Assembly: GCA_000004695.1 (NCBI GenBank)
Contig: CM000151.3
Span: 6,432,001-6,496,000 of the forward strand
Length of the DNA: 64,000 nt
Source: Dictyostelium discoideum
Taxonomy: Eukaryota
Direction: 5' to 3'
Position numbers and translations under genes: made by a program. The notes beneath the pieces were generated by a model. It searched no databases. It was not told where the DNA came from and worked only from the letters and a program-made list of their open reading frames with translations. Below are positions 3,703 through 54,420 of this stretch, piece by piece. The first letter of the stretch is position 1. Every line of letters starts with the position of its first letter.

Positions 3703-6700
3703 CTATTGAGATAAATTTGAAGATTCTCTATTTAAACAACTTTTTGCAACAGAATCAAATAATTGAGCAATTTCTGGAGCAACTTTTGTGAAACCATGAG
3801 ACCAAAAGTTATATCTTAAATTTTTAATTAATTCGATAAAAGTGATTAATAGACCCCATGGATGTGGTTTATTACTAATTAATCTTTCCAAGAGTACTCT
3901 GGTGATTTGTTCTTTGATAATATCTTGACCAGATTCAGAGAAGAGGAATAAAATTACACAACTTAAGTAATGGGTATGATTATTTGGATAACGAAGTTGA
4001 TTGGCGATTGCATTGAAAAAGATATAACGACCTTCACTATCGAGATCCAAAGCCAAACGATGGAAAATATCCATTGGAGCACTTTGTGATGGTGTTGGAG
4101 CAACACCAGATTTACGTTGAATTTGTGGAATTGCCAATGTTCCAATGTATAAAACGAGTGAATTAATGAGTGGTACATTGTATTTGGTGCCAGCAGCCAA
4201 GATTTCCTCTTTATCGGTGAGTAGTAAATGTTTATTCTTTAAATCCAACAAGAAAGAATATGGACCTCTATTCTTGAAGTAATTATCAATTTCAATTTTT
4301 AAACCTTTAAGACTTGCGGTAAAGTTTGAAGAGATTTTTGGTGGTTGATTAATATCTGGTAACATATCAATCTTTAAGTTTGGAGTGAAAGGATCTGGTA
4401 ATCTCATATTTCTTGGAAAGGCGGATAAGATGAGATTACGAAGTTGAATACAAGTATTTGGAATGACATCACATAAACTGAAATGATATTCACAGAGGAA
4501 CTCTGGGAAGTCATGAAGGAGTAAAAGGAGGACCTTCAAAGTACCCTTGTAGAGAACACGTACAGGTTCACTTAAGTCACCACCACGAAGGAAAGGTTCC
4601 AAGAATTTAAAGTGTTGAACCAATAGAGCATGGAACCATTGTTTTTGTTGTCTAATTAAAAGTTTTGGCATAAAGGATTTGTGAGAGAGAAGATCTAACC
4701 ATGCAAAACAGAAACCTGGATACTTTTGTGGTTGAAGTGTTGCCAAAGCATTGACAAAACAAAAGAGAATATGATTTGAGACATGTTCAAGTATTGGATC
4801 TGGTGAGGTTAAATCGACCAAAAGATTTTCAAATATTCTAAGGTAAGGACGTTGATTGAAACGTGATGGATTATTTTCATAGTCTTTGGTGAGGATTTTA
4901 ATTAGGACACTTAAGACTTTGGTTAACATATTGAGTTTGGTTGGATCGGCATGTTTGACCATCATTACAACGAATCTACACCAAGAGTCAATCTCAAGGT
5001 ATTGTGGTGATTGAATTTCAACATTTGCAGCATAACGTTCCAATGCATACTCTAAACCCAATCTAAAGAATTTAATAAAGTAAAGTTCATTCTTCATAAA
5101 ACTAATTTGTAATACTTGACCAAGATATTGAATGAGTATCTTTTGATCGGTATTGGTTGATGAGAAAAGTAACCAATCTTGAAGAAGAGCAATGACAGCC
5201 TCTCTAAGACCTGGTGGATCAACAATCATATCCTCTTGACGAATACGAGAGATACGACGTTTCTTTTCTTCTTTTGGTGAGTTTTTAATTTCTTCAAGAG
5301 TTTTGGCCAACATTTCCGATGGTGAACGACTACTAATCTTTTGAAGGAGATCAAAAGTTGATGGAAACTCTGAAAGATTTGCATAGTTATTTTCAACAAG
5401 ACAGAATCTTAATAGACTAATTGCAAAATCAATGGGTGGAGCCGAACGTGAATCTATCATCATCTTTGAGAGTGCCAAATCATATTCGTTTATATTAATC
5501 AATTGATGAATGATTAAACCTGCTACCAATACACGATTTAATTTCTTATCAGGTGTACTAAATAAAAGGAATGATGTAATGGTGGTAATAACCTTTTGAT
5601 CCCAATCACGTAAAACTTCTAAAAGTTCAAAATAAATTTCATAAATTGGTTTCTTTTCTTGTTCACATAATCTATTACATAATCTTTGTGCAAAACCTGC
5701 TAATAATTCTGATTGACTTTGTGACATACGAACTAATGTAAGAATTTGTTGACTAATTGTATATAAAAGTTCTAATTCAATATTTTGAGTTTGAGCTAAA
5801 ACTCTAATTACAACTTTATCAACTTCATTTAATAATAATCCAAATTTCTCTAAAAGATCTGAATTTGGTAAATTTTGTTGTTGTTGTTGTTGTTGTTGTT
5901 GAACTTGTTGTTGTTGTTGTTGAACTTGCTGTTGTTGTTGTTGTTGTTGTTGATGCTGTTGTTGAGCAGCTTGAAGAGCAGCTTGTTGAGCTTGTTGTTG
6001 TAATAATTGCATTTGAATTTGTTGCTGTTGTTGTTGTTGTAAAATTTGTTGAGAAACTTGTTGTTGCATTTGTTGTTGAACCAATTGTTGTGACATAACA
6101 CCAGTTGATTTAATAGCACCACTAACAATATCATTAGTTGGAGAAGCAGTTAAATTATCAGTTTCACCAGCACCACCAACATTTGAAATATTTATATGAT
6201 GTGGAAGATTAGTGAAATCTTCATAGACACGAAATTGATCTGGTTGAATACCACCTGGTTTTGGACGTAATGATTCTGGGAGAGTATTATAGATTGTAGT
6301 GGTGAGATAACCCATATCAAAGAATGGTTGTGAACCCATTTGTTCTCTATGTTTAAGACGATCATTGTAACTACTAGCCAATACTTCATCGATGGAAATG
6401 ATTGCTTTTTCAGTGGCAGCGGTTTCAACGATGGAACAAGCAAAATCTAAATTTTCATTACAAACCAAACTAATTGCATGCTCTAATGGTATCTCACAAG
6501 GTGGAAGACCATTATTATTTTGAAGAAGAGTTCTAAGGTAAGCAATGATTGAAACACGAAGTGGATCTTTACAAGTGACCAAAGCAAGACTACCAGCAAG
6601 ATTTTGAACCATTAAATGAGAGGCTCTCTTCATTTTTTGTTCATCAGCTTCGGTGGCAAAATCTTTACTAACCAATTCTTTAGAGGTAATTACAGCGATG

Positions 6701-7662
6701 GCAACTGATCTTTCAACTACTGGAGCGATGATTTCACGAACTGCCTTATCGAATGCCAAAGGTACAGCTTTCTTAAAGATTGGTGATTGAGCATAGGCAC
6801 CAATGGAAGGAGTGTAAACAAGATAACGTGGAAGATTTGAAAGTAAATCGATTGATGATTGTTTATTATCTTTTCTCATGTTTTCTTCTTGTTGTTCAAT
6901 TTCACGTTGTTGACGACGATCGGCTAGAATGGTTGTTGGTTTAACAGTATTAATATCAACGGATAAATTATTACAAAGTAATTCCACTTCGAATTTGATA
7001 TTATTTTTGGATTCTTTCAATTGATAAATTTCAACCATTAAACGTAATATTGCCATCACCCAAGGATTTGGTGGTCTGAATACTTTTGATTGTTGACAAT
7101 GTTCCAATAGTTTTGCAACAAATGGAACGATTGCAATTAATAAACCATTCTCTGCTGCATAAATTAAAAGATCCTTTGGTGAAATGACCTTTTGTAACAA
7201 TGGTTTATTACGAGCCAAAGTATTTAAACCTAACCAACCACCCAAATTCTTTAGGAGTGAACGTTCACTATGATCAACACGAATCTTTTCTGATTTTAAA
7301 AGGGTATGAACATTTTGATGAGAATGGAAAAGTACACGCTCTGAAATCGTTGGAATACAAAGACGGTCAATAAATGCAAGATAAAGTGCATGGAAATTTG
7401 CTTCAATTGAAACTCTCTTTACAACAAGATATTGAGCAAAGTAATCATAGTATTCTGGTTTCAAAATATCTTTAAGATCTTTTGCTTTAACATCTAAATT
7501 ATTTTGTGAAATATTATTAATAATAAAGTAAATCTTATCTTTGGTAATATCATCTGGTTGAATCATTTCTTTCGATGCATTTAAAAGTGTACCAATTGGT
7601 ATGGTTGTACTAAATGCATCTTCTTGATCTTTTTTTCTTTTATCATCATCTTTACCATTTGG

Positions 7663-7704
<42 letters not shown>

Positions 7705-8556
7705 ATGATGTTGTTGTTGTTGTTGATGGTGATGATGTTGTTGATGATGTTGTTGTTGTTGTTGCTGTTGTAATTGTTGATGTTGATGATGTTGTTGTTG
7801 TAATTGTATTTGTTGTTGTAATTGTAATTGTTGAGCCATTTTATGTTGTAGTAATTGTTGTTGTTGTAACATTTGTTGTTGTTGTAATAATTGTTGTTGT
7901 TGTTGTGGAGTTAATTGATGATATTGATCGGCTGAAATATCATTACCACCACCACCAACATTACCACTTGAAGTATTTGAATCATAGGTGAAATTCTCTG
8001 CATCTTGGATTTGTTGAGATGATAGGATTGTAGTAGCAGGTGGAGAATTTGCAGATTTTTGTTGTTGAGGTTGTTGTTGTGGTTGTTGTTGTTGTTGTTG
8101 TTGTTGTGGTTGTTGTTGTTGTTGAAATTCCATACCATTTTTTATTGGATCGCTTGATTCAATGATTTTATTAACTGATAAAATTATATCGCCATAATTA
8201 TCTCTAAAATGATCTATTGAACAAATTTGAGCCCAATATTGTGGCCATTCAACCAATCTATTTGCAAATGAGATTAATGAATTTACACCAAAAATAAACA
8301 TATTACTATTCAATGGGAATCTCATTGCCTCCAATACATATTTTAATGCAACTCTTAATGGTTGTGAGGAAATCAATTGATTCTTTATCAATGATCCAAA
8401 TAATAAACCTGTAATTTTCAATTCTTTATCTGGATAATCACTAAGGAATTTATATTCATCAAATAAATTAAATAATAAACATTTGAATATATCTTGATCC
8501 CTATTTTTTTTTTAAAAAAAAAAAAAAAAATAAAAATGATATTAGTAAAATTAATT

Positions 8557-8595
<39 letters not shown>

Positions 8596-9218
8596 CATTT
8601 TAAATATACAAACTTTTGATTTTTTGAAACTTTATATTCTTTTAATACAGAAATAATTTGATCAACAGAAATTTCACCAGAATATAATTTAATAAAGTAA
8701 GAATTTGTTTCATCTTCAACTTCTGCAGGGAATCTTCTTTCTGTGGTTTCAGATTCTGCTGTTTGAAGTGCTGCACTAATATTCTTTAAATCATTAAATA
8801 AATCTGTAGGAATTTGATCAGGAGCCGCCATTAATGTTTTGCAAAGTGTTGATAATACATTATTTGAAATTTGAATTGATTGAGGTGGGAATGATCCTGA
8901 TCCTGTTGTTGCTGTTGTTGGTGATGCTGATGCTGCTGTATTGGAGTTTTCTTCACCACTTTTTCCTTTCTTTAATACACGATCATTCAAAAAAGAAATA
9001 CATTCTTTAATGAAACTTTGATGATCATCTTCTTTCATTCTTTCTTGAACCCATCGTTCTAAAAATAAATATTCTCTCTGTGATGCTAAAGCTGCTAAAT
9101 TCACAATAAATGGATATGTTTTACAATATAACATTTGTCTAAGAATCTAAAATGATTTTTTATAAAAAAAAAAAAAAAAAAGAAAATGAAAGTAAAAATA
9201 AAAAAAAAAAAAATTTTG

Positions 9219-9272
<54 letters not shown>

Positions 9273-9642
9273 ATTAGTTTTGGATGTTCAAAAAAAAAAA
9301 AAATTAAAAAAATTGAAAATTTTCGAAATTCCAAAAAAAAAAAAAATATGCCTTTAAGAAAATTTCGCAGAAAAAAAAAAATGATTGTAACAATAAACCT
9401 TACCTTTAATTCTTGGGCTACATCTAAAAGTCTTGATAATTCTTTTGGATCTTTTTGAGTTATATCAGCCATTATTTGAATAACTGTTAATGGATGATCT
9501 TTCCATAATTGTGAAACAATTGATTGATAATTATGTTGTGATAATAAAGTTTGAAATAATGTTGTTAATAATTCATTTTGTAATTTATTTTTTTTAAGTG
9601 TCTTTTTTTTTTTTAAAAAATAAAATATATTAGTTATTTTTT

Positions 9643-9683
<41 letters not shown>

Positions 9684-10752
9684 AAAAACTTACAATTGAA
9701 GAAACACCTAAAATTAAAAGATCAAGACAATTTTTAATTGGAGAATCAAATAATGGTTTAACTTTTGAATAATGTTCAGAATCAATATCAGATAATTGAA
9801 GTAAAGTTTCAATTAAAGAGATTGAATTCCAATGAGCAATAGTTGGTGGTGTTGATTTACTGAGACTAGATTGATCGATTCTTTTCTTTGTAGAATTTTG
9901 GAATGGGAAGAAATCAGATTGAATTGCAATCTTTAAAAATTGAATTTGACTTAATGAATTTACCCAAACCCTATCGAGAATAAAATCAATTGGGAATGGT
10001 TTGGATTGTTGTTGATCAACTTGAGTTGCTTTTTTATATACAGCTAAAATGAATGCCAAACCACGTTGATCCATATTATTAACGATTGGGCAATCCATTT
10101 CTCTAATAACTATATCCCAATCAATTGTTGGATATAATTCTTTGATAACATCTACAAAAATTGAAATATTCCATTCATCTGGTATATTTGTTGTATTATT
10201 ATTATTATTATTATTACTATTGGTTGTTGTTGTTGTTGATGATGATTCATTTTCAGATTGTTGTTTTGGTGAAGAAGATGTTGGTGATGTATTTGAAGTT
10301 TCTTTATCATTTAAATCATTAAATGTTAAATAAGGAATTTTAGTTTTTTCATTTTCATCATTATTTTCATTATTATTATTATTATTATTATTAGTATTAC
10401 TTGTTAATTCTGCCATTGAAACTATAATTTGAGCTATATCAGATTCTGTTAATTTTTGAAATTGGAATAAAATATCTTTTAAAGTAGAAGCGGATGAACA
10501 ACTAGAATATCCAATGCTTGATATAATTTGATAGGGTACATTTTGTTGAGAGACTTTAGAGATGATTGAATTTACATAGGATGGATTATCTTGTTGTAAT
10601 CTTTTGGAGTTGGTAATTCCACCACCCCCACTACCACTACTTTGATCGTTATCTACTAATGGTGATAATGCTAATGAATTTGGTGGTGAAATTGATTGAA
10701 GATATTTAATTACTTCTGAATAATGTTGTTGATTTTGTTGTTGTTGACTGTT

Positions 10753-10820
<68 letters not shown>

Positions 10821-11825
10821 GATTATTTTGTTGTTGTTGATTATTTTGTTGTTGTAATTGATTTGTTTCTTGAATTTTAAATTTATATAATAATTGATGT
10901 AATAAGTTTTCAGGTAATGATTTTGTATTTGATTGTGATAATTGAATTAAAGTATTTAATAAAAATTTATCGGCTTGTTCACGTACTTCTTTATCTAATG
11001 ATTGAGAGAGTGCTAAACCTAACATAATTTCATGAGATGGCGTTAACTTTAAAGTTGATGAAAAGTGTACCAAGAATTCATTGTTTAAAACCTCATAACC
11101 ATCAAATGCCTTACAAAGTACACTGATGAAATGTGGTTGTTTAGTTAATCTTGAGAATTCATCTTTAAATAATTGAATCTTTAATTGATTTGATGATGAT
11201 GATGATGCTGCTGTTGATGATGCTGTTGTTGATGGTGTTGTTGGTGTTGAAGTTGTTGTTGAAGTTGCCGATGTAGTAGTTGGTGATGTTGTAATTGGTG
11301 TATTTGTATTCTTAAAATCAATACTATCTACTAAACATCTAAAAATATAAATTTCAGCTTGACTACCATATTGATTAATTATCTAATTTAAAAAAAAATA
11401 AAATAATGATTAATAATTGAAATTTAACTTTTTTTTTTTTCTTTCAAAAAAATTTTACATACTTGCGATAATTCTGAAGAATTTGATTTATAAGATTTTT
11501 TAGTTAAATTTGAAATTAAATTTTTAATTTGAGTTGCAATCACAAAACTAAGATTGCTAATTGTATTACTGTCTGTTTGTTCATTATTATTGTTACTTCC
11601 AACTTGAAGTGTCCACGTTTTATAAAATGATTTATCTGATGAAAGTTTATTAAATTTATTAAAAATATTATTTGGATCAGTATATTCTGATGTTTCCTCT
11701 TTATTATTACCATTATTATTATTATCATTATTATTAATACTATTATTATTATTATCGTTATTAATACTATCGTTATTAACTTCTGATGATTTTTTTAAAT
11801 CAATTTCACTAGGTTTAGTTGACAT
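3703..11825 (-). CDS. not1: CCR4-NOT transcription complex subunit 1 (CNOT1/Not1) orthologue. Five exons: 11825..11463, 11382..9694, 9601..9404, 9146..8614, 8500..3703 (about 2526 aa).
   Basis: Real ATG at 11825. Splice sites: GTATGT (11462), GTAAGT (9693), GTAAGG (9403), a weak GTTTGT donor (8613), and acceptors with good polypyrimidine tracts. All phases are consistent. Recognisable CNOT1 blocks, compared against the human sequence from memory: N-terminal 'IATQIKNLISNLTKKSYKSNSSELSQ' ~ '[24 protein letters not shown]'; 'LSRLLDVAQELK' ~ 'LSRILDVAQDLK'; 'FIVNLAALASQREYL' ~ 'FVIDLAALASRREYL'; 'LFNLFDEYKFLSDYPDKELKITGLLFG' ~ '[27 protein letters not shown]'; the MIF4G region 'QYLVVKRVSIEANFH'; and the C-terminal NOT1 domain 'HDFPEFLCEYHFSLCDVIPNTCIQLRNLILSAFPRNMRLPDPFTPNLK' plus 'NQLRYPNNHTHYLSCVILFLF'. 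Poly-Gln tracts are encoded by (CAA)n/(CAG)n. Confidence 0.9.
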
Positions 11826-12881
11826 TTTAATTCGTTATTTTTTTATTTTTTTTATTTTTTTTTATTTTTTTTATTTTTAAATGATTATTTTGAATTGTGA
11901 AAAAAAAATATTATATATTATAATTTTTTTTTTTATTATTGATAGTTATTTTCTAAAAAAAAAAAGAAATTGAGAGAATTTTAGAATGAGCAATGTACTA
12001 TTACTACAGACTAAGTTAATTACAAACAATTATAAGATTTTTTTTATTATTTTTTTTTTTTTTTTTTTTTTTATTTACTTTTTTTTTTTTTTTTTTTTGT
12101 TAATTTTTTTTTTCTAATTATTTAAGTGATTGTAATAATTAAAAAAAAAAAAAAAAAAAAAGATTTAAACACAAAGTGTATGTACAAAAATTATATATGA
12201 TGAGTGAGGGAGTTTTAGAAAAAAAAATAAAAAATAAAGAAAAAAAGAGTATATATAATTAAATTATTACTACTGTTTTCTTTATTTTTTAAAAGTATGT
12301 AAAAGATGCAAATACGAAATGATGTGATGGTGTTTGCGAGTGTTAAATATATATATATTAATTGTATATATTTGAATGTGGTGGTGTGTTACTATTTATT
12401 GCCCTTTGGAAATTTTTTTTTTTTTTTTAAAAATTGAAAAAAAAAAAAAAAAAAGAAAAAATTTAAAAAAATTAAAAAAAATTAAAAAAAAAATTGGAAA
12501 AAAAAAAAAAATAAAATTAAAAAAAAGTTTCTTTTTTGAGCTTCAAATTGTTTTTTTTTTTGAAAATAACTGCTAATTATATCAATTATATTAATTATAT
12601 TAATATTTATATTTATTATATTGAAAATATAATATATTAAAGAAGAATCAAACATACATTCAATTCAAGCACCAATAGAACAAAGTTCATCACACATGCG
12701 GTTTGTCACATCAATTCATTCACTCATCAAAAAAAAAAAAAAAATTTAAACTCCTTTTCCCAAATTAATGTCTAAAAAATTCATTTTATTTATATTTTAA
12801 ATTATTAAGAATTATTAAATAAAGAACAAAGAAATAAAATATTAAATTAAGAAAACATTTAATAGATTTTTATTTTATTAT

Positions 12882-13300: not shown

Positions 13301-13379
13301 TAAAAAAAAGAAACAAAACAAAAAAAAAAAAAAAAAAATATTTGATAAGGAAAATTATTACAAATCTAAATTTATTAAA

Positions 13380-13475
13380 TTTGTTGATCATTTTGTATTA
13401 CTTTTATTTTCAAATTATAAAGAAAGTTCGAGAAATTATTAATCGATAATATTGAAGATGAAAACAATTCCCAAT
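13380..13475. repeat. About 100-bp non-coding element shared in the same orientation with 54318..54420.
   Basis: tttgttgatcattttgtattacttttattttcaaat...gagaaattatta...gataatattgaagatgaaaacaattcccaa is about 85% identical to the 54318-54420 copy. Confidence 0.6.
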
Positions 13476-13627: not shown

Positions 13628-14224
13628 TTAGTTTTTTAAAATGAAACCATTTTTTGGAGACTTTGAAATGAACCTATAAATTTGTTCCAATGATAAATGT
13701 TTAATATTTGAAGTATTTCCATTCAATATAAATACAAAGCCACCTGGTTCCAATTTTAGTAAACCTGGGTGCGAATATCCATTACCATTATAATATACTA
13801 TAGTATTGGTTTTAACTAGTCTCATTACTTCATTTCTAAAATTATTATTATTTCTATTTCTAAAATTATTATTATTATTATTATTATTTGGATTATTATT
13901 TGGATTATTATTTGGATTATTTGGATTATAATGGGTTAAATCTTTCATTTTTATTGAGGAACTATCTTTGATTTTATTTTTATTTTTATTCTTTTTATTT
14001 TTAATTTCTTTTTTAAAACAAAAGCAACCACAACAAAATATTAACTTTAGAATATTTCTAATGATTGGAAATTTAAAACATAAGACAATCACTATTACTA
14101 TAACTATAAGAGCTGTCAATAATAATGTAAATTTAGTTGCACAAATTTTTAGTTGTGTATAATAACAAACAACATTTAATCTATAATTATAAAAATAAGT
14201 AAAGGTTAGATAATTAGTTTTTAG

Positions 14225-14313
<89 letters not shown>

Positions 14314-15748
14314 GTTATTATTATTATTATTATTATTTTTAATTACATACAAATTTGGACAAACATCATCACAAGTAAATTCAGAACCAATATTTAAAGA
14401 ATCACCATCTAAAGAGTTATCACCAGATTGAGCACCATTATCAATTTCAGTATCAGAAGTATTAAAATTAATTCTTATACTATCGATAACTTGAGCCACT
14501 TCATTATATAAATCACCAAAACAATGATATGATGAATCTAATTTTGAAGTAGTATAAACTTGAAATACAAAACTATAAATTTCCTTTGATTTAATGGTTA
14601 CTTGTTGATTATTGATAGGATTAATATCACCAGTACAATTAATGATTGTCATTGTATAGTCTGCATTGATTGTACCAGTATTTTGGACGTTTACTCTTAG
14701 TACACCATTTTTTGACATTGATTCAAATCTATCGATTTGGTAATTTATAATTTTACCAGGTGAAATATTAACAATATATTGAAGTGAATCGGCTTTCAAT
14801 GTAATGGTTAACATTGTTCTATGGGATTCATCAAATCTAATTTTCAAAGATCTTGAATCTTGATTACCTGCAATCTGAACCTTTGTACCCAATTGAGAGG
14901 CTATATAATTTCCCTTCTTACCACTGGAAATCAATGCAACATCGGCATTATAATAATCTGCAATTTGATTTTGAAGACAAGAACCAAATAAAGCGGCACA
15001 ACTATTGGGTTGATTTTGAAAAGCACTATAGGAAACACCGATTTTATTACAAGTTAAACCTGATAAATCAAAGAAATTCTGATCCAACACCATACAAGTG
15101 TTTATAGAATTTGGTTGATTGTAGGGAAATACCACTTTCTTATCAGTGAATTGATTGATTTGAGTCGATGATTGAAAATCACCAATAATTCTAACAATTG
15201 CTTGACTAAATGTATCCATACCCATTGGAGCTGAATTTGATAGTATAATATCTTGAGTGATTGGATTTTGATTATAACTATAGGTTAATGTCGCTGTTAT
15301 TGTATATTCAACTTGAGTTTTTGCAACATTATAAACATCATATTTCACCGAACTAAATGATAAACAATGTGCTGATGATGATTTGGACCCTAATAATGAA
15401 CAACCTAAATTTGCTCTTGAATTTTGATCGGCACCAACATAATCTGAAAAAGAACAACTACAACAAAATCCTTGACTGTCTCTAATTAATTTACCATTGG
15501 CATCTATTGCACCTGGACATGTATGATCAGTTGGTTTATCTTTACAACCACTAGTTAAAACATAATCAGTTTTATAAATAACAGTTTCTTTTGGTTGATA
15601 AGCTACATTTTGTACATAAACTAATGGATAATTTATAAATGTTTCTGATTTTTTAAATTTTACTGAAATTGGTATAACTAATGTTTTTAATTTACCATTT
15701 TCATCTTTAATTTCACTAACTTGAAAATTAAATGTTTCTGAATTTTCC

Positions 15749-15805
<57 letters not shown>

Positions 15806-16087
15806 ATATTAAAAAAAAAAAAAAATTAATACATATTATTTATTTTATATTTTATATTTTTTTATTTATTTATTTTTTTATTTATTTTTTTTTACTTTTT
15901 GTGAATCTATGTAAAGTGAAACTACTAATTTTTTATCACATTTTAAATTTGTTTTATCTTGGTCAGCTAATTCAGTACCATCGAGAGTACAAGATTCAAT
16001 TGAGCTTGACGAAATGATTCCACACCATATTAAATTTATTTTTATAAAAAAAATAAAAATTGAAAAAAAGATCAATTTTTTGATCAT
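13628..16087 (-). CDS. Type-I membrane glycoprotein with a HAP2/GCS1-like domain, a candidate gamete fusogen. Three exons: 16087..15896, 15747..14351, 14180..13628 (about 713 aa).
   Basis: Real ATG at 16087. Signal peptide MIKKLIFFSIFIFFIKINLIWCG. Donors GTAAAA (15895) and GTATGT (14350); acceptors tttttag (15748) and ttatag (14181). Phases are consistent (2142 nt). The ectodomain contains 'GKLIRDSQGFCCSCSFSDYVGADQNSRANLGCS', matching the conserved HAP2-GCS1 'SQGFxCxC' core. There is a single TM helix ICATKFTLLLTALIVIVIVIVLCF, followed by a Cys-rich juxtamembrane tail CCGCFCFKK and an Asn/Pro-rich cytoplasmic tail. The (AAT)n run lies in intron 2. The HAP2 assignment rests on motif recall, not a search. 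Confidence 0.6.
15752..15808. repeat. (AAAT)n microsatellite inside intron 1 of the HAP2-like gene.
   Basis: aaataaataaataaat... x14. Confidence 0.9.
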
Positions 16088-16690: not shown

Positions 16691-18078
16691 ATGACATTAG
16701 ACCCATATTCAGGATCAGTCGATTGCCGTGACTGGAAGAAATCAGCAATTAAAAAAGCTATTGAAGATGGTATATTTAAAGAACATGACTATGTAATGCT
16801 TTATAATCTTGACGAATTCAGAGCACTTGCCAAAGAAGCCTGCGACAACTTAAAAGGATTACAAACTATGGCAGTTAAATGTAATCCAGTTATGAGCTTA
16901 ATGAAAGAAGCAATTAAAGCTGGTCTTGGTGCTGAAGTTGCTTCATTTGGTGAATTAAGAATTGCAGAAATAGCTGGTTTTGAACCATCTGTAAGTATTC
17001 CAAAAATTTTTAATTCTTTTAAAATAAAAAAAAAATAAAAAAATAAAAAAATAAATCCTAATTTTTTTTTTTAATGAAAAAGAAAATTATATTTGATTCA
17101 CCAATTAAAACAAAAAAAGAATTAGAATATGCATTAAATTTAGGTGTTGTAATTAATATTGATAATTTTGAAGAATTAGAAACTATAGAATCAATTGTTT
17201 CAAAATTTTCAAAGGAAAAATATGAAAGTCTTTCGTTGGGTATTAGAGTGAATCCACAAGTTGGAGCAGGTAAATTAACTGATCTTAGTACAGGTGTACC
17301 AACATCTAAATTTGGTATTGGTATTGAACATAAAGATAAGATCATCGATGCCTATGTACGTAACAAATTTTTAAAGGGAGTTCATATTCATGTTGGATCA
17401 CAAGGTTTTGAAATTTCAAATATATCAGAATCTGCAGTTAAAGTTATGAATTTAGTGAAAGAGATTAATGCACGTGATGATACAAAATCTCAAATTACAT
17501 TCTTTAATATGGGTGGTGGTTTATCAGTAAACTTTGAATCAGAAGAGACTTCACCAACTTTCACTCAATATGCCAATCACATGAAACAATTATTACCAGA
17601 ATTATTCAATGGTGAATTTTTATTGATTACCGAATTTGGTCGTTCCTATTGGGCAAAATGTGGTGTCGTAGTTTCAACAGTTGAATATACAAAATCAAGT
17701 GGTGATCGTGAAATCGCAATTTGTCATGCCGGTGCAAATATGTACATTAGAACCGTTTATCAATTCCCATTGTGGAGAATTAGAGTAACCATTTTCGATT
17801 CAAATGGTGAATATAAAACTGGAAATGAAAAAATCACAGATATCGCTGGTCCTTGTTGTTTTGCCGCTGATGTTTTAGTAAAAGAAAGATTATTACCACC
17901 AATTAAAAAAGATGATTTCATTATGGCACATGATAGTGGTGCTTATATGCTTTCAAGTTATTCTCATTATAATTTAAGATTAGCTCCACCAATTTTCTCT
18001 TTTAATACCACAAATAATACAATTGAATTAATTAAAAAAGGTGAAACTATTGAAGATAAAATTAATTTCTTTTCTTAA
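16691..18078 (+). CDS. PLP-dependent decarboxylase of the Orn/DAP/Arg decarboxylase family (fold-type III; ODC/DapDC-like). Two exons: 16691..16990, 17083..18078 (431 aa).
   Basis: ATG at 16691. Donor GTAAGT at 16991; acceptor gaaaaag at 17082; phase 0. 'AVKCNP' matches the PLP-lysine motif (YAVKCN). Also present are a Gly-rich 'FNMGGGLSV' loop, 'HIHVGSQ', 'EFGRSY', and C-terminal 'AGPCCFAADVL' (the substrate-specificity Cys region). The exact substrate cannot be assigned. Confidence 0.75.
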
Positions 18079-18282: not shown

Positions 18283-20161
18283 TTAAAAAAGATCAGAAAT
18301 TAAATCTTTTGACGATGGTTTACAATTTTCAGGAATATCAAATGAAGCAATGATTTGTTTTGAAACTTTGGTAACTTCAAAACAAAGATCTTGAATTAAG
18401 AATGGGATTGATTGAGCAACATTTGGTGAGATTAAGTGATTTGAAACGAACCAACCTAAATCTTCTTCAATGGAGACAAGAGCGTCCAACATAATTAAAT
18501 GAGCTAATGGTTTAACGTTTTTAAGTTTTAATGTATTGATAGAGTTTTGGAAAACGATTTTAGTCATGTGAGCAAAACCTAATTTGACAGCCCATGGAAT
18601 TGCATTGTTAAAAGCGAAATAAGCAGGTTCTTTAGAGTTGCTAATGATTTGTTTTAATTCGGCCAAACGAATCTCTTCTCTAGTTTCAAATAATTGATTA
18701 ATATTTGAAAAATTGAATAATAACGATTTGGCATCTTCACCATCTAAATAGATACGATTGGTAGTGGTATTTGTTTGTTTTTGTTTTACACCTAATAAAT
18801 ACTTGGCCAATTGTTGCATGAGAACAGTATTATCACCTTCATATGTACAAACGATATCACAATCATTTTTAAATTCAGCTATACGATTTGCTGAACGGTA
18901 ACCTTGACCACCACAAGCTTCACGACAAGTTTGGAGTGCTGCAACACAGAACCAACTGTAAACTGCTTTGATACCTGAGCAATGGGCATGGATTGAAGCT
19001 GGTAATTTCTCTTGACATAATTCATTGGTTAAACGTTGAATGTAAAGATCAAACAAGATGGTTCTTGCCAATGGTGCCATAAGACGACGTTGTTGTGAAC
19101 TGAGAGTAATCAATGGAAGCTCATTATTTGCAGATGGACCAAACTGTTTTCTAATATGTGAGAATTCAATAGCAATAGAGAGGGAGGTTTTGGCAGCACC
19201 TGAACAACCTTTAGTGATTGCCATTCTACCAACAATGAATGGTGCCATTGTTGCAGCGAAATTCTTTATTGGTGTATTGAATTGACTCTTGTAAACACCG
19301 TCTTCGCTAACATCACTATATTTGTTTAAAAGGTTCTCTCTTGGGATACGAACTTGATCGAAACGAATTTGACCATTATCAATACCATTCAAACCTAACT
19401 TATGACCACAATCTTTAATGGTGATACCTTTCATGATTGCACCACTCTTTGGACAACGAAGTGGTACAACCAATGCATGAACACCATAATTTGTACCATC
19501 AATGATTAAGTTTGCGAAAACAGTAGTGTAGGTAGCATGAAGATAAGAACCACCAATCCAAAACTTTTCACTTGTTGGTGTTGGTGAATGAATGATAAAC
19601 TCTTTAGTTTGTTTATCGTAATGTGCAGTAGTTTCAATACCACGAACATTTGAACCATGACCAATCTCTGTCATTGCAAAGCAACCCATTGTCTTGAGGG
19701 TATTAGCATCTTCAATATATTTCTCATGTCTTGAGGTACCTAAAAACATGATTGTACCTCCAAATAATGTATAATGAACACCCAATTTGGTACAAACATT
19801 GTTATTATACAATGAAAACATTTCTACAACACCAGCATATCTGTGAAGGTTATTCTTAATATCAGTCAAATGAATTAATCCACTATTTGCAACAGCAACA
19901 CATTGTTCAAGTACTAATTGTCTATAGGTAGCCATATCCAATCCAATGAAATTCTCTTTGAATTTTGGATGATTTCTAATGAATTCTCTTGCTGCATCCT
20001 TATATTTACTTGCTTCAACTGAATCAATTAATAATTTTAATTCTCCAACATTTATATTTGCATCAATTGAATTAAATAATTCTTTTTCTAATACTTCATT
20101 TTTATTATTTGTTGTTTGACTATTAACATCTAAATGTTTTTTAATCTATATTATATATATG

Positions 20162-22071: not shown

Positions 22072-23950
22072 TTAAAAAAGATCAGAAATTAAATCCTTTG
22101 ATGATGGTTTACAATTTTCAGGAATATCAAATGAAGCGATAATTTGTTTTGAAACTTTAGTAACTTCAAAACAAAGATCTTGAATTAAGAATGGGATTGA
22201 TTGAGCAACATTTGGTGAGATTAAATGATTTGAAACGAACCAACCTAAATCTTCTTCAATGGAGACGAGAGCATCCAACATAATTAAATGAGTTAATGGT
22301 TTAACGTTTTTAAGTTTTAATGTATTGATAGAGTTTTGGAAAACGATTTTAGTCATGTGAGCAAAACCTAATTTGACAGCCCATGGAATTGCATTGTTAA
22401 AAGCGAAATAAGCAGATTCTTTAGAGTTGTCAATGATTTGTTTTAATTCGGCCAAACGCATCTCTTCTCTAGTTTCAAATAATTGATTTATATTCGAAAA
22501 ATTGAAAAATAACGATTTGGCATCTTCACCATCTAAATAGATACGATTGGTAGTGGTATTTGTTTGTTTTTGTTTTACACCTAATAAATACTTGGCCAAT
22601 TGTTGCATGAGAACAGTGTTATCACCTTCATATGTGCAAATGATATCACAATCATTTTTAAATTCAGCTATACGATTTGCTGAACGGTAACCCTGGCCAC
22701 CACAAGCTTCACGACAAGTTTGGAGTGCTGCAACACAGAACCAACTGTAAACTGCTTTGATACCAGAGCAGTGAGCATGGATTGAAGCTGGTAATTTCTC
22801 TTGACATAATTCATTGGTTAAACGTTGAATGTAAAGATCAAACAAGATGGTTCTTGCCAATGGTGCCATAAGACGACGTTGTTGAGAACTGAGAGTAATC
22901 AATGGAAGCTCTTTATTTGAAGATGGGCCAAATTGTTTTCTAATATGTGAGAATTCAATAGCAATAGAGAGGGAGGTTTTAGCAGCACCTGAACAACCTT
23001 TAGTGATTGCCATTCTACCAACGATGAATGGTGACATTGTTGCAGCGAAATTCTTTATTGGTGTATTGAATTGGCTCTTGTAAACACCATCTTCGCTAAC
23101 ATCACTATATTTGTTTAAAAGGTTCTCTCTTGGGATACGAACTTGATCGAAACGAATTTGACCATTATCAATACCATTCAAACCTAACTTATGACCACAA
23201 TCTTTAATGGTGATACCTTTCATGATTGCACCACTCTTTGGACAACGAAGTGGTACAATAAATGCATGAATACCATAGTTTGTACCATCAATGATTAAGT
23301 TTGCGAAAACTACAGCATAGGTAGCATGAAGATAAGCGCAACCAATCCAAAACTTTTCACTTGTTGGTGTTGGTGAATGAATGATAAACTCTTTAGTTTG
23401 TTTATCGTAATGTGCAGTAGTTTCAATACCACGAACATTTGAACCATGACCAATCTCTGTCATTGCAAAGCAACCCATTGTCTTGAGGGTATTAGCATCT
23501 TCAATATATTTCTCATGTCTTGAGGTACCTAAAAATATAATTGGACCTCCAAATAATGTATATTGAACACTCAATTTCGTTAAAATATTATTATTATACA
23601 ATGCAAACATTTCTAAAGCGCCTATATATCTGTGAAGGTTATTCTTAATATCAGTAAAATGAATTAATCCACGATTTGCAATTGCAGCACATTGCTCAAG
23701 TACTAATTGTCTATAGGTAGCCATATCCAATCCAATGAAATTCTCTTTGAATTTTGGATGATTTCTAATGAATTCTCTTGTTTCATCCTTATATTTACTT
23801 TCTTCAACTGAATCAATTAATAATTTTAATTCTCCAACATTAATATTTGTATCAATTGAATTAAATAATTCTTTTTCTAAAACTTCATCCTTATTATTTG
23901 TTGTTTGACTATTATTAACTTCTAAATGTTTTTTTATCTATATTATATAA

Positions 23951-44906: not shown

Positions 44907-47900
44907 TCATATGAATTGATCAAAAGATATAATATTTGGGAGAGATGATTCTGGAATACAATAGTAATTAGCTGTTGTTTTTCTTAGCTTGATCGTTGAG
45001 GTGAGAAGGATCTTAGGATCTTTGAAGTTATTATGGTCTTTTGCTGATAAGTTTTTCAGATCTTTTGCTTTTTTGATGTATTCTAGAGTGGCCAATTTGT
45101 GCCATTTCTTTAGAAGGGAGCTGTATGATAGTGATTCATTTGTTAAAGGATCTTCGCTGTATATTTGATTGCAAATCCAAATCCAAATGTTGTGGAGGAT
45201 AAGGGCCATTAGGTTTCTATATGCGAATGATCTGGTTAGATCATAGTCTATTGCTTTATAGTTCCATTCAAAGTATTCTTTGTGGAATCTGTGGTTGGCG
45301 TAATCTGCATTCACTTCTTGATCTTTTTTGGCTGTCGGTGATAATTTTGGAGTTATTCTATTAATGAAATTGTTATTTTGCCTAATTCTTGTATGGTGCC
45401 AGTTTTTACCTTTGCCTGTGGTAATATAGATGAAATTTTTGAGTTTATTTATTTTTATGAATTGTTTTGTTTTCTTGCATGAGAAGAACAGGTGACCGTA
45501 TGGGTCTTTGCTCATATCTTCTTTGCAGAGTGGGCATTGTTTGTTGTGAAGGTAGTTTATTGGAAGGCATCTGGCATGGAATCTAAACATTGTGTCTCTT
45601 GTTTTAGGGTCTTTTATCTTCAGTATGTTGTTGAAGAGTTGATTATAGCTGTAGCCTCTTAAGTTTAGAGATGATTGGAATTCCGTTTTAGGGATGGTTG
45701 GATTTTGGTCTTGAATTGTGGTATACCATTCTGCCAGTGAAAGTGGTTGTCCATTTTCGTTTTTTATGGATGTGAGATTATTGTTGAAGATTGCTTTTTT
45801 TATTCTTATTTTGTTCCATTCGTCTAAGTTTTCTTTTAGGTATCTGGATGTGAATTTGTTTTTTTGGATCTGATATTCCCAGCTTTTGTGATGAGATGAG
45901 TTTGTTTGTTTGGTTTCTAGTGCTAGGATGAACTGGTTTATGATCCAAAGTTTCTGCGCCAGTTGTCTCAATTCTATATTCCAAATGTTCCAGCCCCCTA
46001 CTTTTAGTGGGTATCTTGCTCTTTTGGTTCTCATTAAATTAATAACTTGAAATCCACTAGCATTTTTGTTGTTTGGTGCCGATAAAAACCATTCGACTAA
46101 TTTATTGATTTGGTTTAATTCCTCTTCCTTAAAGTTCTCTACATATGAATAGTAGGTTAATTTAGAGAGTGCGAATGCTTTGAGGATGTTGGTTTTGGTT
46201 TTGATTGTTGAGTCAGTGGTTTTCCATAGTACTAAGGATGATCTTATTGTGTTTAATATTTCTGGCATTTTTCTTGTTATCCCTTTGCCTGTGAAGAAGT
46301 ATCCCAAGTATCTTTCTGGATTTGTAGATATTGGAATTCTTTGGTTGGTATTGTCTGGGTTGCCTATAAGAATTGATGAAGATTTGTCGATGTTTAGTTT
46401 TGAGGAAGTGGCTTTGCAAAATGAATTGAAGTGTTGTAGTACTAATTCAAGTTGTTGAGAGTCTGGGACCATTGAAGCCGAGTCGTCTGCAAAGCTTTGG
46501 AATTTCTCTCTGTGGTTGCTGTTGTTTAGAGGAAGGCCAGTAATTCGGTCATCTTGTAAAATTTTTCTAGCTAAAGCCTCTATTACAAGGACGAACAGGG
46601 TGGGTGATAGTGGATCTCCTTGTTTAACTCCTCTTTTGATCTCAAAGGGTATAGTAGTTCTACCATTAATTTCAATTCTTGCTTCAGATTTGGTGAGTAG
46701 ATTCATTATCAGGTTGATTATATTGGTTGGAATGTTGATGTGTTGTAGTGATCTGAGTATTGAACCGTGTGAGATCGAGTCAAAAGCTTTTTCGAAATCA
46801 TATAGTGTAATTATTCCGTTAATTCTTTTATCATTACAATAGTTGATTAATTCGTTCATTGATATGATATTATCTATAATGAATCTGCCTGGTACGAAAC
46901 CTTTTTGATTGTGGTTGATCACTTTCGTTAGTATTGGGATTATTCTATTGTTTATTAGTTTTGAGTGGATTTTATATATACAGTTAGCCAGTGTAATTGG
47001 TCTTCTGTTTTTGATTAGTTCGGGGTCTCCCTTTTTAGGTATCGTGATAATGAGGCCTTCTTTGTAATTTTTGCTAATTAGATGAGGATTTCTTAGAGTG
47101 TCGTTGAATGCTGAGGCCAGTATTGGAGCTAGTTTTTCTTTGTGTGTTATGTAGAATAAGTTTGGAATTCCATCTGGGCCTGGAGATTTGTGTGGGTTCA
47201 ATTGTTTTATTACTTCTAGGATCTCTTGTGATGTGAATTCATTTTCAAGGTTGTCCCATGTTGAGTCCCTGGTCACTGTCCAATTTTCCAACATTTCATA
47301 ATGAGATGGTGGGTCATCTTCTTTGTAGTCATAAAGATTTGAGTAATATTTTACGTATTCTTCTTCGATCAATTCCTGTTTGTTGATTGTTCTACCTTGT
47401 GCATCTTTTACTGCGTTGATGGTGAAATCATTGTGTCTTTTCTTGATTCTCGCGGAGATGTACTTGAGTGAGGTTTCTTCGCAATAGTTGTTCAATTCTT
47501 GTTTAAGTTGTTCTTCTCTTTTTTTAGATTCATTTATTGCTGAAAGGGTTGCGAAGGCTTGGTCTTTAAATTCTGTCTCTAGTAGGGAGATTAGATTTTT
47601 GATGTTTGCCTTATTGTTGTAGTCATTTTGTTTTTGAAATTCTGTGTATAGTTGTTTTATTTTGTTTAGTAAGCTGTTGAGTTGAGAGAAGGAAATAGAG
47701 TTATGGTTGGATGACAGCTCCCTTGAATAATCGTTAAGTAGGAAGTCTATTTTCTTAAGCATTATGCTTGAGAGGATTGAGGATTTTTTTAATCTCCATC
47801 TGCGCTTGTTCATCTGTATGTTGGGTAGAGTGAAGGTGGTTGATAGGAAGTTGTGATCTGATAGAGGTATGTCATTAATTTTTGGGGGGATTAGGTTCCT

Positions 47901-48611
47901 TAAGTATAATTGGCTGTAGTTGATTATGCTATTGTTAAGGTATATTCTGTCTAGTCTCCTTTCCAAGATTCTTGTGAGGTTATTGTTTGTGTTGTGTATC
48001 GTTCTTGAGAAGGTGGGTCTTTTATTTAGTTGGTCCATATCCATTAGGTTATTTGAAATTCTGATGGCTTCGATTACTGTGGCCATCTCATCTGGGGATT
48101 GTGTTGTCAAGTTGCCTTGGTCATCATTTGATGTGTGATTGTCATTGAAGTCTAAACAATTGAAGTCGCCTGCTATGATGTCGATGTTTTTTTTAGGGTT
48201 AGACGTTAGGTTGTGGTATTGGTTGTTGAAGTGTTTGTTTAGTGTTGAAGCTAGTGTTTTTCTTTTATCAGGTTGGGCCGGGGCGTATATGGCCAAGATT
48301 CTCGTTGTGGTATCTTTTATTAGAATGTCTGATATTATTAGTCTACCTTCTATTATGAATATTGGTGAGAGTTTTATGTTTTGGTTGTTGTGGTTTAGTA
48401 TTCCTATTCCGTTGCCTCTGTTGGTTGCGCTAATGATGGAGCCAGGAAATAGCTGGTGTGCTTGTGTTGCGTCGGCGTTGAGTTCATTGACTATGGTTAG
48501 TGCCAATGAGTTTGGGGGGGATTGGGATTTGATAAAGTCTGTTTTGTTTTTGAAGGAGGTGTCAGTGCCCCAACCTCTGACATTCCATTGGTTGATTTTG
48601 ATTACTACCAT
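44907..48611 (-). CDS. Retrotransposon ORF2: apurinic-like endonuclease + reverse transcriptase + C-terminal CCHC zinc knuckle (1234 aa).
   Basis: Real ATG at 48611. The N-terminal EEP fold 'LAIYAPAQ...GDFNCLDF...SDHNF'. RT motifs 'PGPDGIPN', 'FEKAFDSISH', 'QGDPLSPTLF', 'SFADDSA' (YXDD box). C-terminal 'CPLCKEDMSKDPYGHLFFSCK'. Confidence 0.85.
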   Translation of the reverse strand: MVVIKINQWNVRGWGTDTSFKNKTDFIKSQSPPNSLALTIVNELNADATQAHQLFPGSIISATNRGNGIGILNHNNQNIKLSPIFIIEGRLIISDILIKDTTTRILAIYAPAQPDKRKTLASTLNKHFNNQYHNLTSNPKKNIDIIAGDFNCLDFNDNHTSNDDQGNLTTQSPDEMATVIEAIRISNNLMDMDQLNKRPTFSRTIHNTNNNLTRILERRLDRIYLNNSIINYSQLYLRNLIPPKINDIPLSDHNFLSTTFTLPNIQMNKRRWRLKKSSILSSIMLKKIDFLLNDYSRELSSNHNSISFSQLNSLLNKIKQLYTEFQKQNDYNNKANIKNLISLLETEFKDQAFATLSAINESKKREEQLKQELNNYCEETSLKYISARIKKRHNDFTINAVKDAQGRTINKQELIEEEYVKYYSNLYDYKEDDPPSHYEMLENWTVTRDSTWDNLENEFTSQEILEVIKQLNPHKSPGPDGIPNLFYITHKEKLAPILASAFNDTLRNPHLISKNYKEGLIITIPKKGDPELIKNRRPITLANCIYKIHSKLINNRIIPILTKVINHNQKGFVPGRFIIDNIISMNELINYCNDKRINGIITLYDFEKAFDSISHGSILRSLQHINIPTNIINLIMNLLTKSEARIEINGRTTIPFEIKRGVKQGDPLSPTLFVLVIEALARKILQDDRITGLPLNNSNHREKFQSFADDSASMVPDSQQLELVLQHFNSFCKATSSKLNIDKSSSILIGNPDNTNQRIPISTNPERYLGYFFTGKGITRKMPEILNTIRSSLVLWKTTDSTIKTKTNILKAFALSKLTYYSYVENFKEEELNQINKLVEWFLSAPNNKNASGFQVINLMRTKRARYPLKVGGWNIWNIELRQLAQKLWIINQFILALETKQTNSSHHKSWEYQIQKNKFTSRYLKENLDEWNKIRIKKAIFNNNLTSIKNENGQPLSLAEWYTTIQDQNPTIPKTEFQSSLNLRGYSYNQLFNNILKIKDPKTRDTMFRFHARCLPINYLHNKQCPLCKEDMSKDPYGHLFFSCKKTKQFIKINKLKNFIYITTGKGKNWHHTRIRQNNNFINRITPKLSPTAKKDQEVNADYANHRFHKEYFEWNYKAIDYDLTRSFAYRNLMALILHNIWIWICNQIYSEDPLTNESLSYSSLLKKWHKLATLEYIKKAKDLKNLSAKDHNNFKDPKILLTSTIKLRKTTANYYCIPESSLPNIISFDQFI

Positions 48612-49864
48612 TATGAGATGATATCGATCTCCTCTTGGGAGTCGTATAGCTGCGGTTTGGATGGTGAAGGGTAGATACTCTCTATGAAGCTCTCAATGAT
48701 TCCTTTCCTTTCTTTTTTGACAGGTGTCTTAGGGGTGGATGGGATGTAAGGGTTGCTTCTGTTTATTGTTGGTGAGAGTTGGGTGACCTCGTTGTTTGAG
48801 TGGATTTCCTCGTTCTTGCGTTTATGTGATGGAGGGATGTTTGGTGTCTTCTCTCTGTTTTCCGAGGATGAATGGATGTTAGTGCTCGTTTTGTTGGCAT
48901 TGTCTTTTTGGATGGCGTTGGATGTTGTGGTAGTGGTTGTGGTGGGTTTGACAGATTGAGATTCTGCTTGGTTTTTGGGGGGAAGAGGTTGAGAGGACTT
49001 TTTTGATTGGGCTTTTTTCTCTTGGGTTGATTGTTTATCAGACTGATTGTTTGCTGGGTCATTTGTTTGTTGTTGTGGTTTTGGTTGAGAGGATTTGATT
49101 GCTATCCTGTTTTGGGTGTTGGGAGGATCATCTGTCATCTCATCTTCTAATGGTTCTTCCGTGTTGTTTAACTCTACTTTCTTATTTTTCTTTTGTGAGG
49201 AGTAGGTTTTGGTGGCCGTTCTGATGGTAAAGTTGGCGATTTCTGTATTGTGTTGGCCAGATTTCATTTGATCGCCTATTTTGCATTCTATTAGACCGAA
49301 TACTAGGAGGTGGTCGGTGGAGTATATAGTATGGTATATTGCATAGGGTATTTCTTCTGCAAAGGCAGTTTTGATGAGGGCGTCCACTATTCCTGCCTTT
49401 TCTCTTGGAATTCTTACTCTTCCTGTGAGGACGTGGTAGTCTCTACTGGAGGTGATGAAGGTTCCCAATTTGCTTCTATCTCTAATGATATTTAGGAGAG
49501 ATTGTTCGTTTTTAATCATCAGGTGTATCATTTTTCTAGTTCCTTTGCCTATGTATATCTTGTCGATTGGGATATCGTAGTTTGAGAGTGTTTTTCTCAT
49601 TTCTTCTAACCCCATGAGATCCATTTTGGGGAATTCGAGTGTAATTGGGTAGAATCCGTTGTTTTTCTCGTAGGTTGAGAGCGCAGTCATGTTCAATATG
49701 GTCTCGCAGTATTTGGAGATGTCTTTGAGGCCTATTGATAATTTGGGATAGGTCTCCTTTATCTCTGCTGTTTTTGTGGAGAATTCCTTAATGAAGTTCT
49801 CTGATGCCTCGTCCATATGGGTGGAGGGGTTGGCCATTTTAGCCGCGTCTGCGTAGGAATTCAT
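48611..49864 (-). CDS. Retrotransposon ORF1 (417 aa, basic Gag-like; Pro/Thr/Gln-rich C-terminal half).
   Basis: Real ATG at 49864. The stop overlaps the ORF2 start. Confidence 0.7.
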   Translation of the reverse strand: MNSYADAAKMANPSTHMDEASENFIKEFSTKTAEIKETYPKLSIGLKDISKYCETILNMTALSTYEKNNGFYPITLEFPKMDLMGLEEMRKTLSNYDIPIDKIYIGKGTRKMIHLMIKNEQSLLNIIRDRSKLGTFITSSRDYHVLTGRVRIPREKAGIVDALIKTAFAEEIPYAIYHTIYSTDHLLVFGLIECKIGDQMKSGQHNTEIANFTIRTATKTYSSQKKNKKVELNNTEEPLEDEMTDDPPNTQNRIAIKSSQPKPQQQTNDPANNQSDKQSTQEKKAQSKKSSQPLPPKNQAESQSVKPTTTTTTTSNAIQKDNANKTSTNIHSSSENREKTPNIPPSHKRKNEEIHSNNEVTQLSPTINRSNPYIPSTPKTPVKKERKGIIESFIESIYPSPSKPQLYDSQEEIDIIS

Positions 49865-52868: not shown

Positions 52869-52926
<58 letters not shown>

Positions 52927-53525: not shown

Positions 53526-54061
53526 CATTCAATATTAAAATATCAACAATAACAACAACACATCCATTCATTTTCAACAATTAAAGTATCTCTTTTGTTT
53601 TAAAAAATAAATAAATAAATAAATAAAAAAAATCTAAAAAAGTTGGTTTATTATTTCTTTTCTGTTGAATTTTCTGATTTATATTTTAAGAATTTTTTTT
53701 TTTTTTTTTTGGACTTTCCAAAATATTTTAAAAAAAATTAAATATTTAAATTCCAAAATTAAATCATAAATGATTTTATTATTAAGGTTAATTTAAATAG
53801 AGTTTAAAACTTTTTTTTCAAACCATACTTACCTGTCATTATCAATATGTGATCATAAAGGAATATTTGATTTCAAACATTTCAGACCATTGCACTTTTA
53901 GGTTTGTTTTTTTTATGATCTTCCAAAAATAGGATACAAGTGACAATTTATGATAGTCGTGGATGTTGCGCTTGCGCACTCCCACAACACACCCTATTTA
54001 ATTTTAAAGAAAAATAATAATAATAATAATAATAATAATAATTATAATTATATCACTAATA

Positions 54062-54250
54062 ATTAAAATAATAATAATTTTAGAATCAAGTAATGAGACT
54101 AGTTAAAACCAATACTATAGTATATATATCATAATGGTAATGGATATTGGCACCCAGGTTTACTAAAATTAGAACCAGGTGGCTTTGTATTGAATGGAAA
54201 TATTTCAAATATTAAACATTTATCATTAGAACAAATTTATAGGTTCATTT
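54062..54250 (+). pseudogene. Decayed fragment of the HAP2-like gene 3' end (cytoplasmic tail through the stop and about 60 bp of 3' flank). It is inverted relative to the intact gene at 13628..14180.
   Basis: 'aataattttagaatcaagtaatgagactagttaaaacc...ggtaatggatattggcacccaggtttactaaaattagaaccaggtggctttgtattgaatggaaat...ttatcattagaacaaatttataggttcatttcaaactaa' is about 88% identical to the reverse complement of 13628-13830. It carries a frameshifting insertion, a 6-bp deletion, and a 30-bp terminal deletion. Homology may extend to about 53935 ('ggatgttgcgcttgcgc' ~ 'tgttgtggttgcttttg'). Confidence 0.6.
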
Positions 54251-54317
54251 CAAACTAAATAAATTAAAATTAAAAATTTTTTTGTTAACTTTTTGTTTTA
54301 TTATTTTGATATATTGA

Positions 54318-54420
54318 AAATTTGTTAATCATTTTGTATTATTTTTATTTTCAAATAATTAATAAAATTTGAGAAATTATTATATTATGATAATATTGAA
54401 GATGAAAAAACAATTCCCAA
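54318..54420. repeat. Second copy of the roughly 100-bp shared element (see 13380..13475), in direct orientation.
   Basis: tttgttaatcattttgtattatttttattttcaaat...gagaaattatta...gataatattgaagatgaaaaaacaattcccaa. Confidence 0.6.

Follow-up and report, generated by a model that had tools for sequence, protein, structure and literature searches.

In Dictyostelium discoideum, disruption of the HAP2/GCS1 gene hgrA in type I cells (KAX3) or in a congenic type II strain brings sexual cell fusion down to background and abolishes macrocysts; the knockouts grow and form fruiting bodies normally, and fusion is restored by hgrA cDNA (PMC4910948). A review recounts the same knockout results. The gene is dispensable in type III cells, and a second gene, hgrB, is likewise required for fusion and does not substitute for hgrA (PMC4910948). 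HgrB (DDB_G0281923, formerly mrhA) resembles HgrA in being needed for gamete fusion of types I and II and in its signal peptide, motif and transmembrane (TM) layout, but it is much larger (TM segment at amino acids (aa) 1586-1608), is HAP2-like in the motif region only and is found in dictyostelids only. Here we analyse a 64,000-nucleotide (nt) stretch of D. discoideum DNA (assembly GCA_000004695.1, contig CM000151.3; hereafter the window), in which a first-pass annotation, made from the letters alone, had proposed a HAP2/GCS1-type gamete fusogen gene. We conclude with high confidence that positions 13628-16087 of the minus strand are hgrA itself (DDB_G0276069, formerly hapA), the HAP2/GCS1 orthologue of D. 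discoideum AX4 on chromosome 2; the hgrB gene lies outside the window. The gene is already known, having been curated, named, knocked out in 2016 and reviewed, and the HAP2 call is right but not new. The proposal that the window carries a sexual-cycle gene agrees with the loss of sexual cell fusion and macrocysts in the published knockout.

Conceptual splicing and translation joined three exons on the minus strand from 16087 to 13628 (16087..15896, 15747..14351 and 14180..13628) into one open frame, exactly as had been predicted. The joined coding sequence (CDS) comprises 2,142 nt and 713 aa with its sole stop at the end, and both introns have canonical GT..AG borders. The parts of the gene are as follows.

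15896..16087, minus strand: hgrA exon 1, encoding aa 1-64; ATG at 16087-16085, signal peptide at ~aa 1-23; based on translation and on primer hgrA-ORF-F at 16062-16084.

15748..15895, minus strand: hgrA intron 1, 148 nt, GT..AG (GTAAAA...TTTTAG), 2% G+C; lies between primers hgrA-1F and hgrA-1R.

14351..15747, minus strand: hgrA exon 2, encoding aa 65 to the first two bases of codon 530 and most of the HAP2 ectodomain; based on translation, AlphaFold and Foldseek.

14181..14350, minus strand: hgrA intron 2, 170 nt, GT..AG (GTATGT...TTATAG), 6% G+C, with (AAT)n on the coding strand.

13628..14180, minus strand: hgrA exon 3, encoding the last base of codon 530 to aa 713, with the stop at 13628-13630; stem, TM helix and cytoplasmic tail.

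The introns contain 2-6% G+C and the exons 21-29%, the usual contrast in Dictyostelium between low-G+C introns and higher-G+C exons. When the donor of exon 2 was moved 1 or 2 bases out of frame, 20-35 in-frame stops appeared, and other donor positions for intron 2 were rejected, either because the frame was broken or because the donor was not GT. The peptide formed across the exon 2/3 join, CPNLLNVVCYY, has the counterparts CPNLLNVVCYY, CPNFFNIICYL and CPNIINLLCF in three dictyostelid homologues, and an intron at the position of intron 2 is also found in the paralogue DDB_G0272452. For intron 1, the product of primers hgrA-1F and hgrA-1R would be 446 bp from genomic DNA and 298 bp from the spliced transcript, and reverse transcription PCR (RT-PCR) from gamete cDNA gave a band of ~300 bp with this pair (PMC4910948), a size consistent with removal of the intron. 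As the first-pass annotation had remarked, the gene was overlooked by the mechanical list of open reading frames (ORFs), because that list holds only two pieces of it, 13628..14119 with a TTG start and 14221..15348 with a GTG start; intron 2 is filled with the (AAT)n repeat.

The identity of the gene follows from a comparison with the published locus. Okamoto et al. 2016 place hgrA at chromosome 2:6445628-6448087 (PMC4910948, Table S3), an interval of 2,460 bp and thus of the same length as window positions 13628-16087; with chr2:6445628 at window position 13628, the window is therefore chr2:6432001-6496000. The same offset fits three neighbours listed in that table, DDB_G0276029, DDB_G0276065 and DDB_G0276051, and our gene model starts and ends where the curated dictyBase hgrA does. 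In addition, nine hgrA primers of PMC4910948 map exactly in or around the gene, among them one for the ORF, at the ATG, and a pair for RT-PCR inside exon 3 (hgrA-2F at 13923-13948 and hgrA-2R at 13739-13759). The HgrA motif residues numbered 283-331 in that paper land exactly on MVLDQNFF...ADYYN in our translation. The window gene and the described HgrA (dictyBase DDB0308506; CDS LC075764) therefore share locus, coordinates and offset, nine primers, motif numbering, start and stop, with no established difference between them.

Some observations speak against this identification or against details of the gene model. Printed primers ORF-R, 1F and 1R deviate from the window by 1-3 bases, and with ORF-R as printed, aa 711 would be F rather than L. 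RefSeq XP_643321.1, which PMC4910948 lists for HgrA, was not returned by a search of 5.8 billion proteins in which other AX4 proteins were present. The exact 713-aa sequence was likewise absent from the protein collection, and sameness with LC075764 is judged from coordinates, primers and motif numbering. Intron 2 is placed by homology and reading frame only.

An alternative explanation is that the interval holds a paralogue which has decayed or been mis-joined, and that another locus, resembling DDB_G0272452, is the functional HAP2 gene of the species. AX4 does carry a second HAP2 locus, which is 87% identical over 324 aa and reaches full length (637-641 aa) in two assemblies from wild strains, and the best protein-database match to the window product (84% identical, D. 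discoideum) comes from this paralogous locus rather than from hgrA itself. Against this, the frame of the window gene is intact over 713 aa at the coordinates of the curated hgrA, and it is from the window locus that the primers, knockout arms and rescue cDNA of the published work were taken. Moreover, a tail motif common to the D. purpureum and P. violaceum orthologues is kept in the window gene and missing from the paralogue, of which the AX4 model is only a 327-aa fragment. For practical purposes we consider this explanation refuted, and we treat the window gene as hgrA throughout.

The product is, taken as a whole, almost certainly best explained as a 713-aa type I membrane protein with a signal peptide, an ectodomain, a stem, one TM helix and a cytoplasmic tail. 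Hydropathy peaks at aa 1-28 and aa 540-578 only, the pattern of a type I topology. The N-terminus is hydrophobic over aa 1-23, and in alignments the crystallised mature HAP2 ectodomains (PDB entries) start at residue 24 of HgrA, in line with the signal peptide that had been proposed. The cysteine-rich ectodomain spans ~523 aa (24-546), somewhat less than the earlier estimate of about 560 aa, and the single TM helix and Cys-rich juxtamembrane tail were both recovered, the cysteine cluster standing at the start of a cytoplasmic tail of ~147 aa. The conserved and structural elements of the protein are the following.

15451..15477, minus strand: SQGFCCSCS, a near-invariant HAP2 block, aa 155-163; aligns with sqgfcc in three solved HAP2 structures.

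14947..15093, minus strand: classical HAP2-GCS1 motif, aa 283-331, MVLDQNFFDLSGLTCNKIGVSYSAFQNQPNSCAALFGSCLQNQIADYYN; residue range as given in PMC4910948.

14072..14131, minus strand: TM helix, ~aa 547-566, FTLLLTALIVIVIVIVLCFK; Kyte-Doolittle score up to 3.28 in a 19-residue window.

14018..14035, minus strand: juxtamembrane cysteine cluster CCGCFC, aa 579-584; CCGCSC, CCCK and CCGCC in dictyostelid homologues.

13631..13840, minus strand: C-terminal 70 aa of the cytoplasmic tail, with a motif common to the D. purpureum and P. violaceum HAP2 tails.

The first-pass annotation had taken the segment SQGFCCSC, within LIRDSQGFCCSCS (aa 151-163), as the most conserved core of the HAP2-GCS1 domain. 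This is right insofar as the segment belongs to a near-invariant block, but the classical motif lies at aa 283-331 and SQGFCCSC constitutes a second block. Conservation was scored on an alignment of 26 HAP2 sequences, HgrA and 25 homologues, and 13 residues are invariant in all 26 (C192, C297, I300, G301, F307, C314, C321, L322, Q325, C435, C473, C527 and C535). A conservation of at least 90% was found for S155, Q156, G157, F158, C159, C160 and C162 of the SQGFCCSC block and for C132, C141, C180, C523 and C543. The block CNKIGVSYSAF...C...C (CNKIG...F...C...CL..Q) is invariant or nearly so. E118 and R175, the latter in the sequence SRANL, are also at least 90% conserved and align with ...pleV... 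and ...tRANL... of Chlamydomonas HAP2. In that protein, a Glu-Arg pair keeps the tip of domain II in place; Fedry et al. (2017) are reported to have numbered it E126-R185. From the alignment, E118 and R175 probably correspond to this tip-stabilising pair. For the juxtamembrane cysteine cluster, a role in acylation and targeting is plausible by analogy with Chlamydomonas HAP2, for which Liu et al. reportedly described such a role of juxtamembrane cysteines in 2015.

Membership of the HAP2/GCS1 class II fusogen family, as originally proposed, is supported by profile, sequence and fold comparisons. The Pfam HAP2-GCS1 profile (PF10699) matched with an expect value (E) of 9.5e-122 and 407.6 bits, compared with a cut-off of 27.4, and the alignment pairs aa 47-539 of HgrA with profile positions 1-512 of 515. 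Among the solved HAP2 ectodomains, sequence matches were obtained to those of T. cruzi (5ow4, 4.9e-57), Arabidopsis (5ow3, 8.9e-54), Chlamydomonas (6e18/5mf1/6dbs, ~1e-47) and C. merolae (7s0k, 1e-40), with the alignments crossing both exon junctions free of gaps. We also modelled exon 2 alone (aa 65-529) with AlphaFold and ran Foldseek with the model against the PDB. The model is beta-rich, with a mean predicted local distance difference test score (pLDDT) of 84.4 and a predicted template modelling score (pTM) of 0.66; its least confident ordered stretch comprises exon-2 residues 101-120 (aa 165-184), directly after SQGFCCSCS. Foldseek ranks 1-9 were all HAP2 structures (Chlamydomonas, Arabidopsis, Cyanidioschyzon and Trypanosoma; E 2e-36 to 8e-16), and the next matches (E 1e-15 to 1e-10) were archaeal Fsx1, alphavirus E1, bunyavirus Gc (hantavirus and phlebovirus), flavivirus E and C. 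elegans EFF-1. Global superposition was best with the monomeric 7s0k, at a root-mean-square deviation of 10 Å compared to ~30 Å for trimeric post-fusion forms, which suggests that the domain arrangement of the model differs from the post-fusion hairpin and not that the fold is another one.

By its sequence matches and by the model, HgrA accordingly has the full architecture of a HAP2 class II fusogen with domains I-III. It is like the solved HAP2 ectodomains in its three-domain class II fold, cysteine pattern, SQGFCC segment, CNKIG...C...C block and type I topology. In contrast, it is only 21-26% identical to them and lacks the long insertions of Chlamydomonas HAP2, and its tip region after SQGFCCSCS is lineage-specific and of low model confidence.

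Solved HAP2 structures and viral class II proteins suggest by analogy that, on a fusion-competent gamete, the domain II tip (~aa 163-190, after SQGFCCSCS) would insert into the membrane of the partner. HgrA would then trimerise, and domain III and the stem would fold back, so that the hairpin would draw the two membranes together until they merge. Several points count against this account. The fusogenic activity of HgrA in Dictyostelium, comprising sufficiency, trimer formation and membrane insertion, is carried over from those solved proteins. The functions of HgrA and HgrB cannot yet be told apart, and attempts to localise HgrA failed (PMC4910948). Gamete membranes contain few HgrA peptides, and the gene is not expressed in a strongly gamete-specific way (PMC4910948).

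HgrA could instead be a true HAP2-family protein whose main task is gamete recognition or adhesion, or which serves HgrB as an obligate partner, rather than being the membrane-merging machine itself. Such a role would be in keeping with the loss of fusion when either hgrA or hgrB alone is removed, with the failure of the two genes to complement each other and their shared dispensability in type III cells, and with the bare detectability of HgrA in gamete membranes, where HgrB is much more abundant. However, in HgrA the class II ectodomain is complete, with every conserved cysteine and the conserved E118 and R175 in place, whereas HgrB is HAP2-like in its motif region only. HAP2 orthologues built in this way are considered to be the actual fusogen in other lineages (review). 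We therefore consider a mainly recognition or adhesion role, or an obligate-partner role, very unlikely, and favour HgrA as the candidate fusogen.

The second AX4 HAP2-GCS1 locus, DDB_G0272452 (XP_645269.1), lies outside the window and is represented in AX4 by the 327-aa fragment model. The full-length proteins of the two wild-strain assemblies are KAM9971542.1 and KAM9973110.1, and the paralogue occupies 10001-12194 of the locus region taken from GCA_054859355.1 JBTAPG010000035.1. It shares with HgrA an ectodomain of 81-87% identity, the position of intron 2, the TM helix and the CCGC cluster. Unlike hgrA, it sits in another genomic neighbourhood, with similarity confined to the gene within +/-10 kb, and its tail is short, acidic and serine-rich, ending after IKMKGLTN without the last ~100 aa of HgrA. 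Identity to D. purpureum HAP2 is 56.7% for HgrA and 56.4% for the paralogue; the two are equidistant from it, and the duplication therefore postdates that split. In an assembly labelled 'D. cf. discoideum', pieces of the paralogue are fused to an upstream FG-repeat protein model, which suggests decay of the paralogue in that assembly. A literature search on DDB_G0272452, XP_645269 and XP_643321 returned nothing beyond the hgrA paper, in which the DDB_G0272452 locus goes unmentioned (PMC4910948).

The tail that distinguishes HgrA from the paralogue carries the motif NE[VI]xx[LI][VI]xxxx[IV]VY[YF], common to the HAP2 tails of HgrA, D. purpureum and P. violaceum. The HgrA tail has no Pfam match. 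When its last 70 aa were compared with 1.84 billion representative sequences, the matches were all weak (E values of 7e-11 to 6e-4, added up over many stretches) and fell on individual NHL-type beta-propeller repeats of large proteins, mostly of the NHL-repeat kind. An NHL domain was not assigned to the tail, since Pfam NHL gave no match to HgrA and one unit cannot form a propeller.

Part of this tail also occurs a second time in the window, as the first-pass annotation had noticed for the 3' end of the gene.

54006..54300, plus strand: decayed, frameshifted partial copy of the hgrA 3' end, from ~85 codons before the stop into the proximal 3' flank; found by blastn.

Positions 13913 to ~13560 of the minus strand align with 54006 to ~54300 of the plus strand, with a core (13662-13901 against 54254-54012) of 88% identity and E 2e-78. 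The copy is a decayed fragment, since it contains indels of 1, 4, 6 and 30 nt and its reading frame reaches a stop after 13 codons. Judged by sequence comparison, the copied tail is ancestral. A 100-bp piece from directly downstream of hgrA (13377-13474) recurs at 54318-54420, where it is inverted relative to the first copied piece when compared with the arrangement at the hgrA locus. From the inverted relative orientation of the two pieces, 54006-54420 is therefore a small rearranged duplication.

For the second locus and the tail together, we advance one tentative proposal, which we think unlikely to hold. DDB_G0272452, apparently intact in wild isolates but annotated as truncated or fragmentary in AX4, would be a recent full-length duplicate and could contribute to the fusion logic of the three mating types. 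The HgrA tail module, dictyostelid-specific, missing from the paralogue and partly copied at 54 kb, may in turn be regulatory and make HgrA function dependent on mating type.

We also recorded the surroundings of hgrA in the window. Its divergent upstream neighbour, at 16925-18078 on the plus strand, is a pyridoxal-dependent Orn/DAP/Arg decarboxylase gene; primer 'ddcB-F' of PMC4910948 maps to 16925-16939, and this neighbour is therefore ddcB, which served as the anchor for verification of the knockout (PMC4910948). Beyond it lie, in tandem on the minus strand, two acyl-CoA oxidase ORFs (18283-19941 and 22072-23730), each of 552 aa, with 94.6% protein and 95.8% DNA identity; the pair is a recent tandem duplication. 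Acyl-CoA oxidase DDB_G0276065 corresponds to the interval from window position 18283. On the other side of hgrA, the CNOT1 orthologue DDB_G0276029 corresponds to 3703-11825, with Not1 domains found in the ORF 3703-8421, and DDB_G0276051 corresponds to an H-lectin ORF at 52404-53465. A neighbouring ZZ-type zinc-finger ORF of the window is 100% identical over 466 aa to AX4 XP_643331.1, compared with 85-91% identity for relatives such as D. citrinum, D. firmibasis and D. dimigraforme. The 84% identity of the best database match to HgrA, whose locus has only that gene in common with the window, had at first pointed to a sister species; this origin was rejected in view of the exact zinc-finger match and because the 84% match belongs to the paralogous locus, which AX4 carries as well. 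Finally, a retrotransposon lacking long terminal repeats (non-LTR) occupies 44907-49864 of the minus strand, with an ORF1 of 417 aa that has no Pfam match and an ORF2 of 1,234 aa that matches RVT_1 (E 1e-33), and its G+C content is 33-41% compared with a background of ~20%. The 5' end of the element lies 295 nt from a tRNA-Leu(CAA) gene (minus strand, 50159-50239), on the downstream side of the tRNA gene, and it looks like a tRNA-targeted TRE-type element.

Taken together, our results add no new biology to this exact Dictyostelium gene, for which the link to the sexual cycle was already established. Their worth is as a check: from sequence alone, a first reading assigned the gene to the correct family and reproduced its three curated exons base for base. 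As loose ends that may merit a specialist's attention, only the second HAP2 locus and the tail module are left. HAP2 is the ancestral gamete fusogen of eukaryotes, and its presence marks a working sexual cycle.

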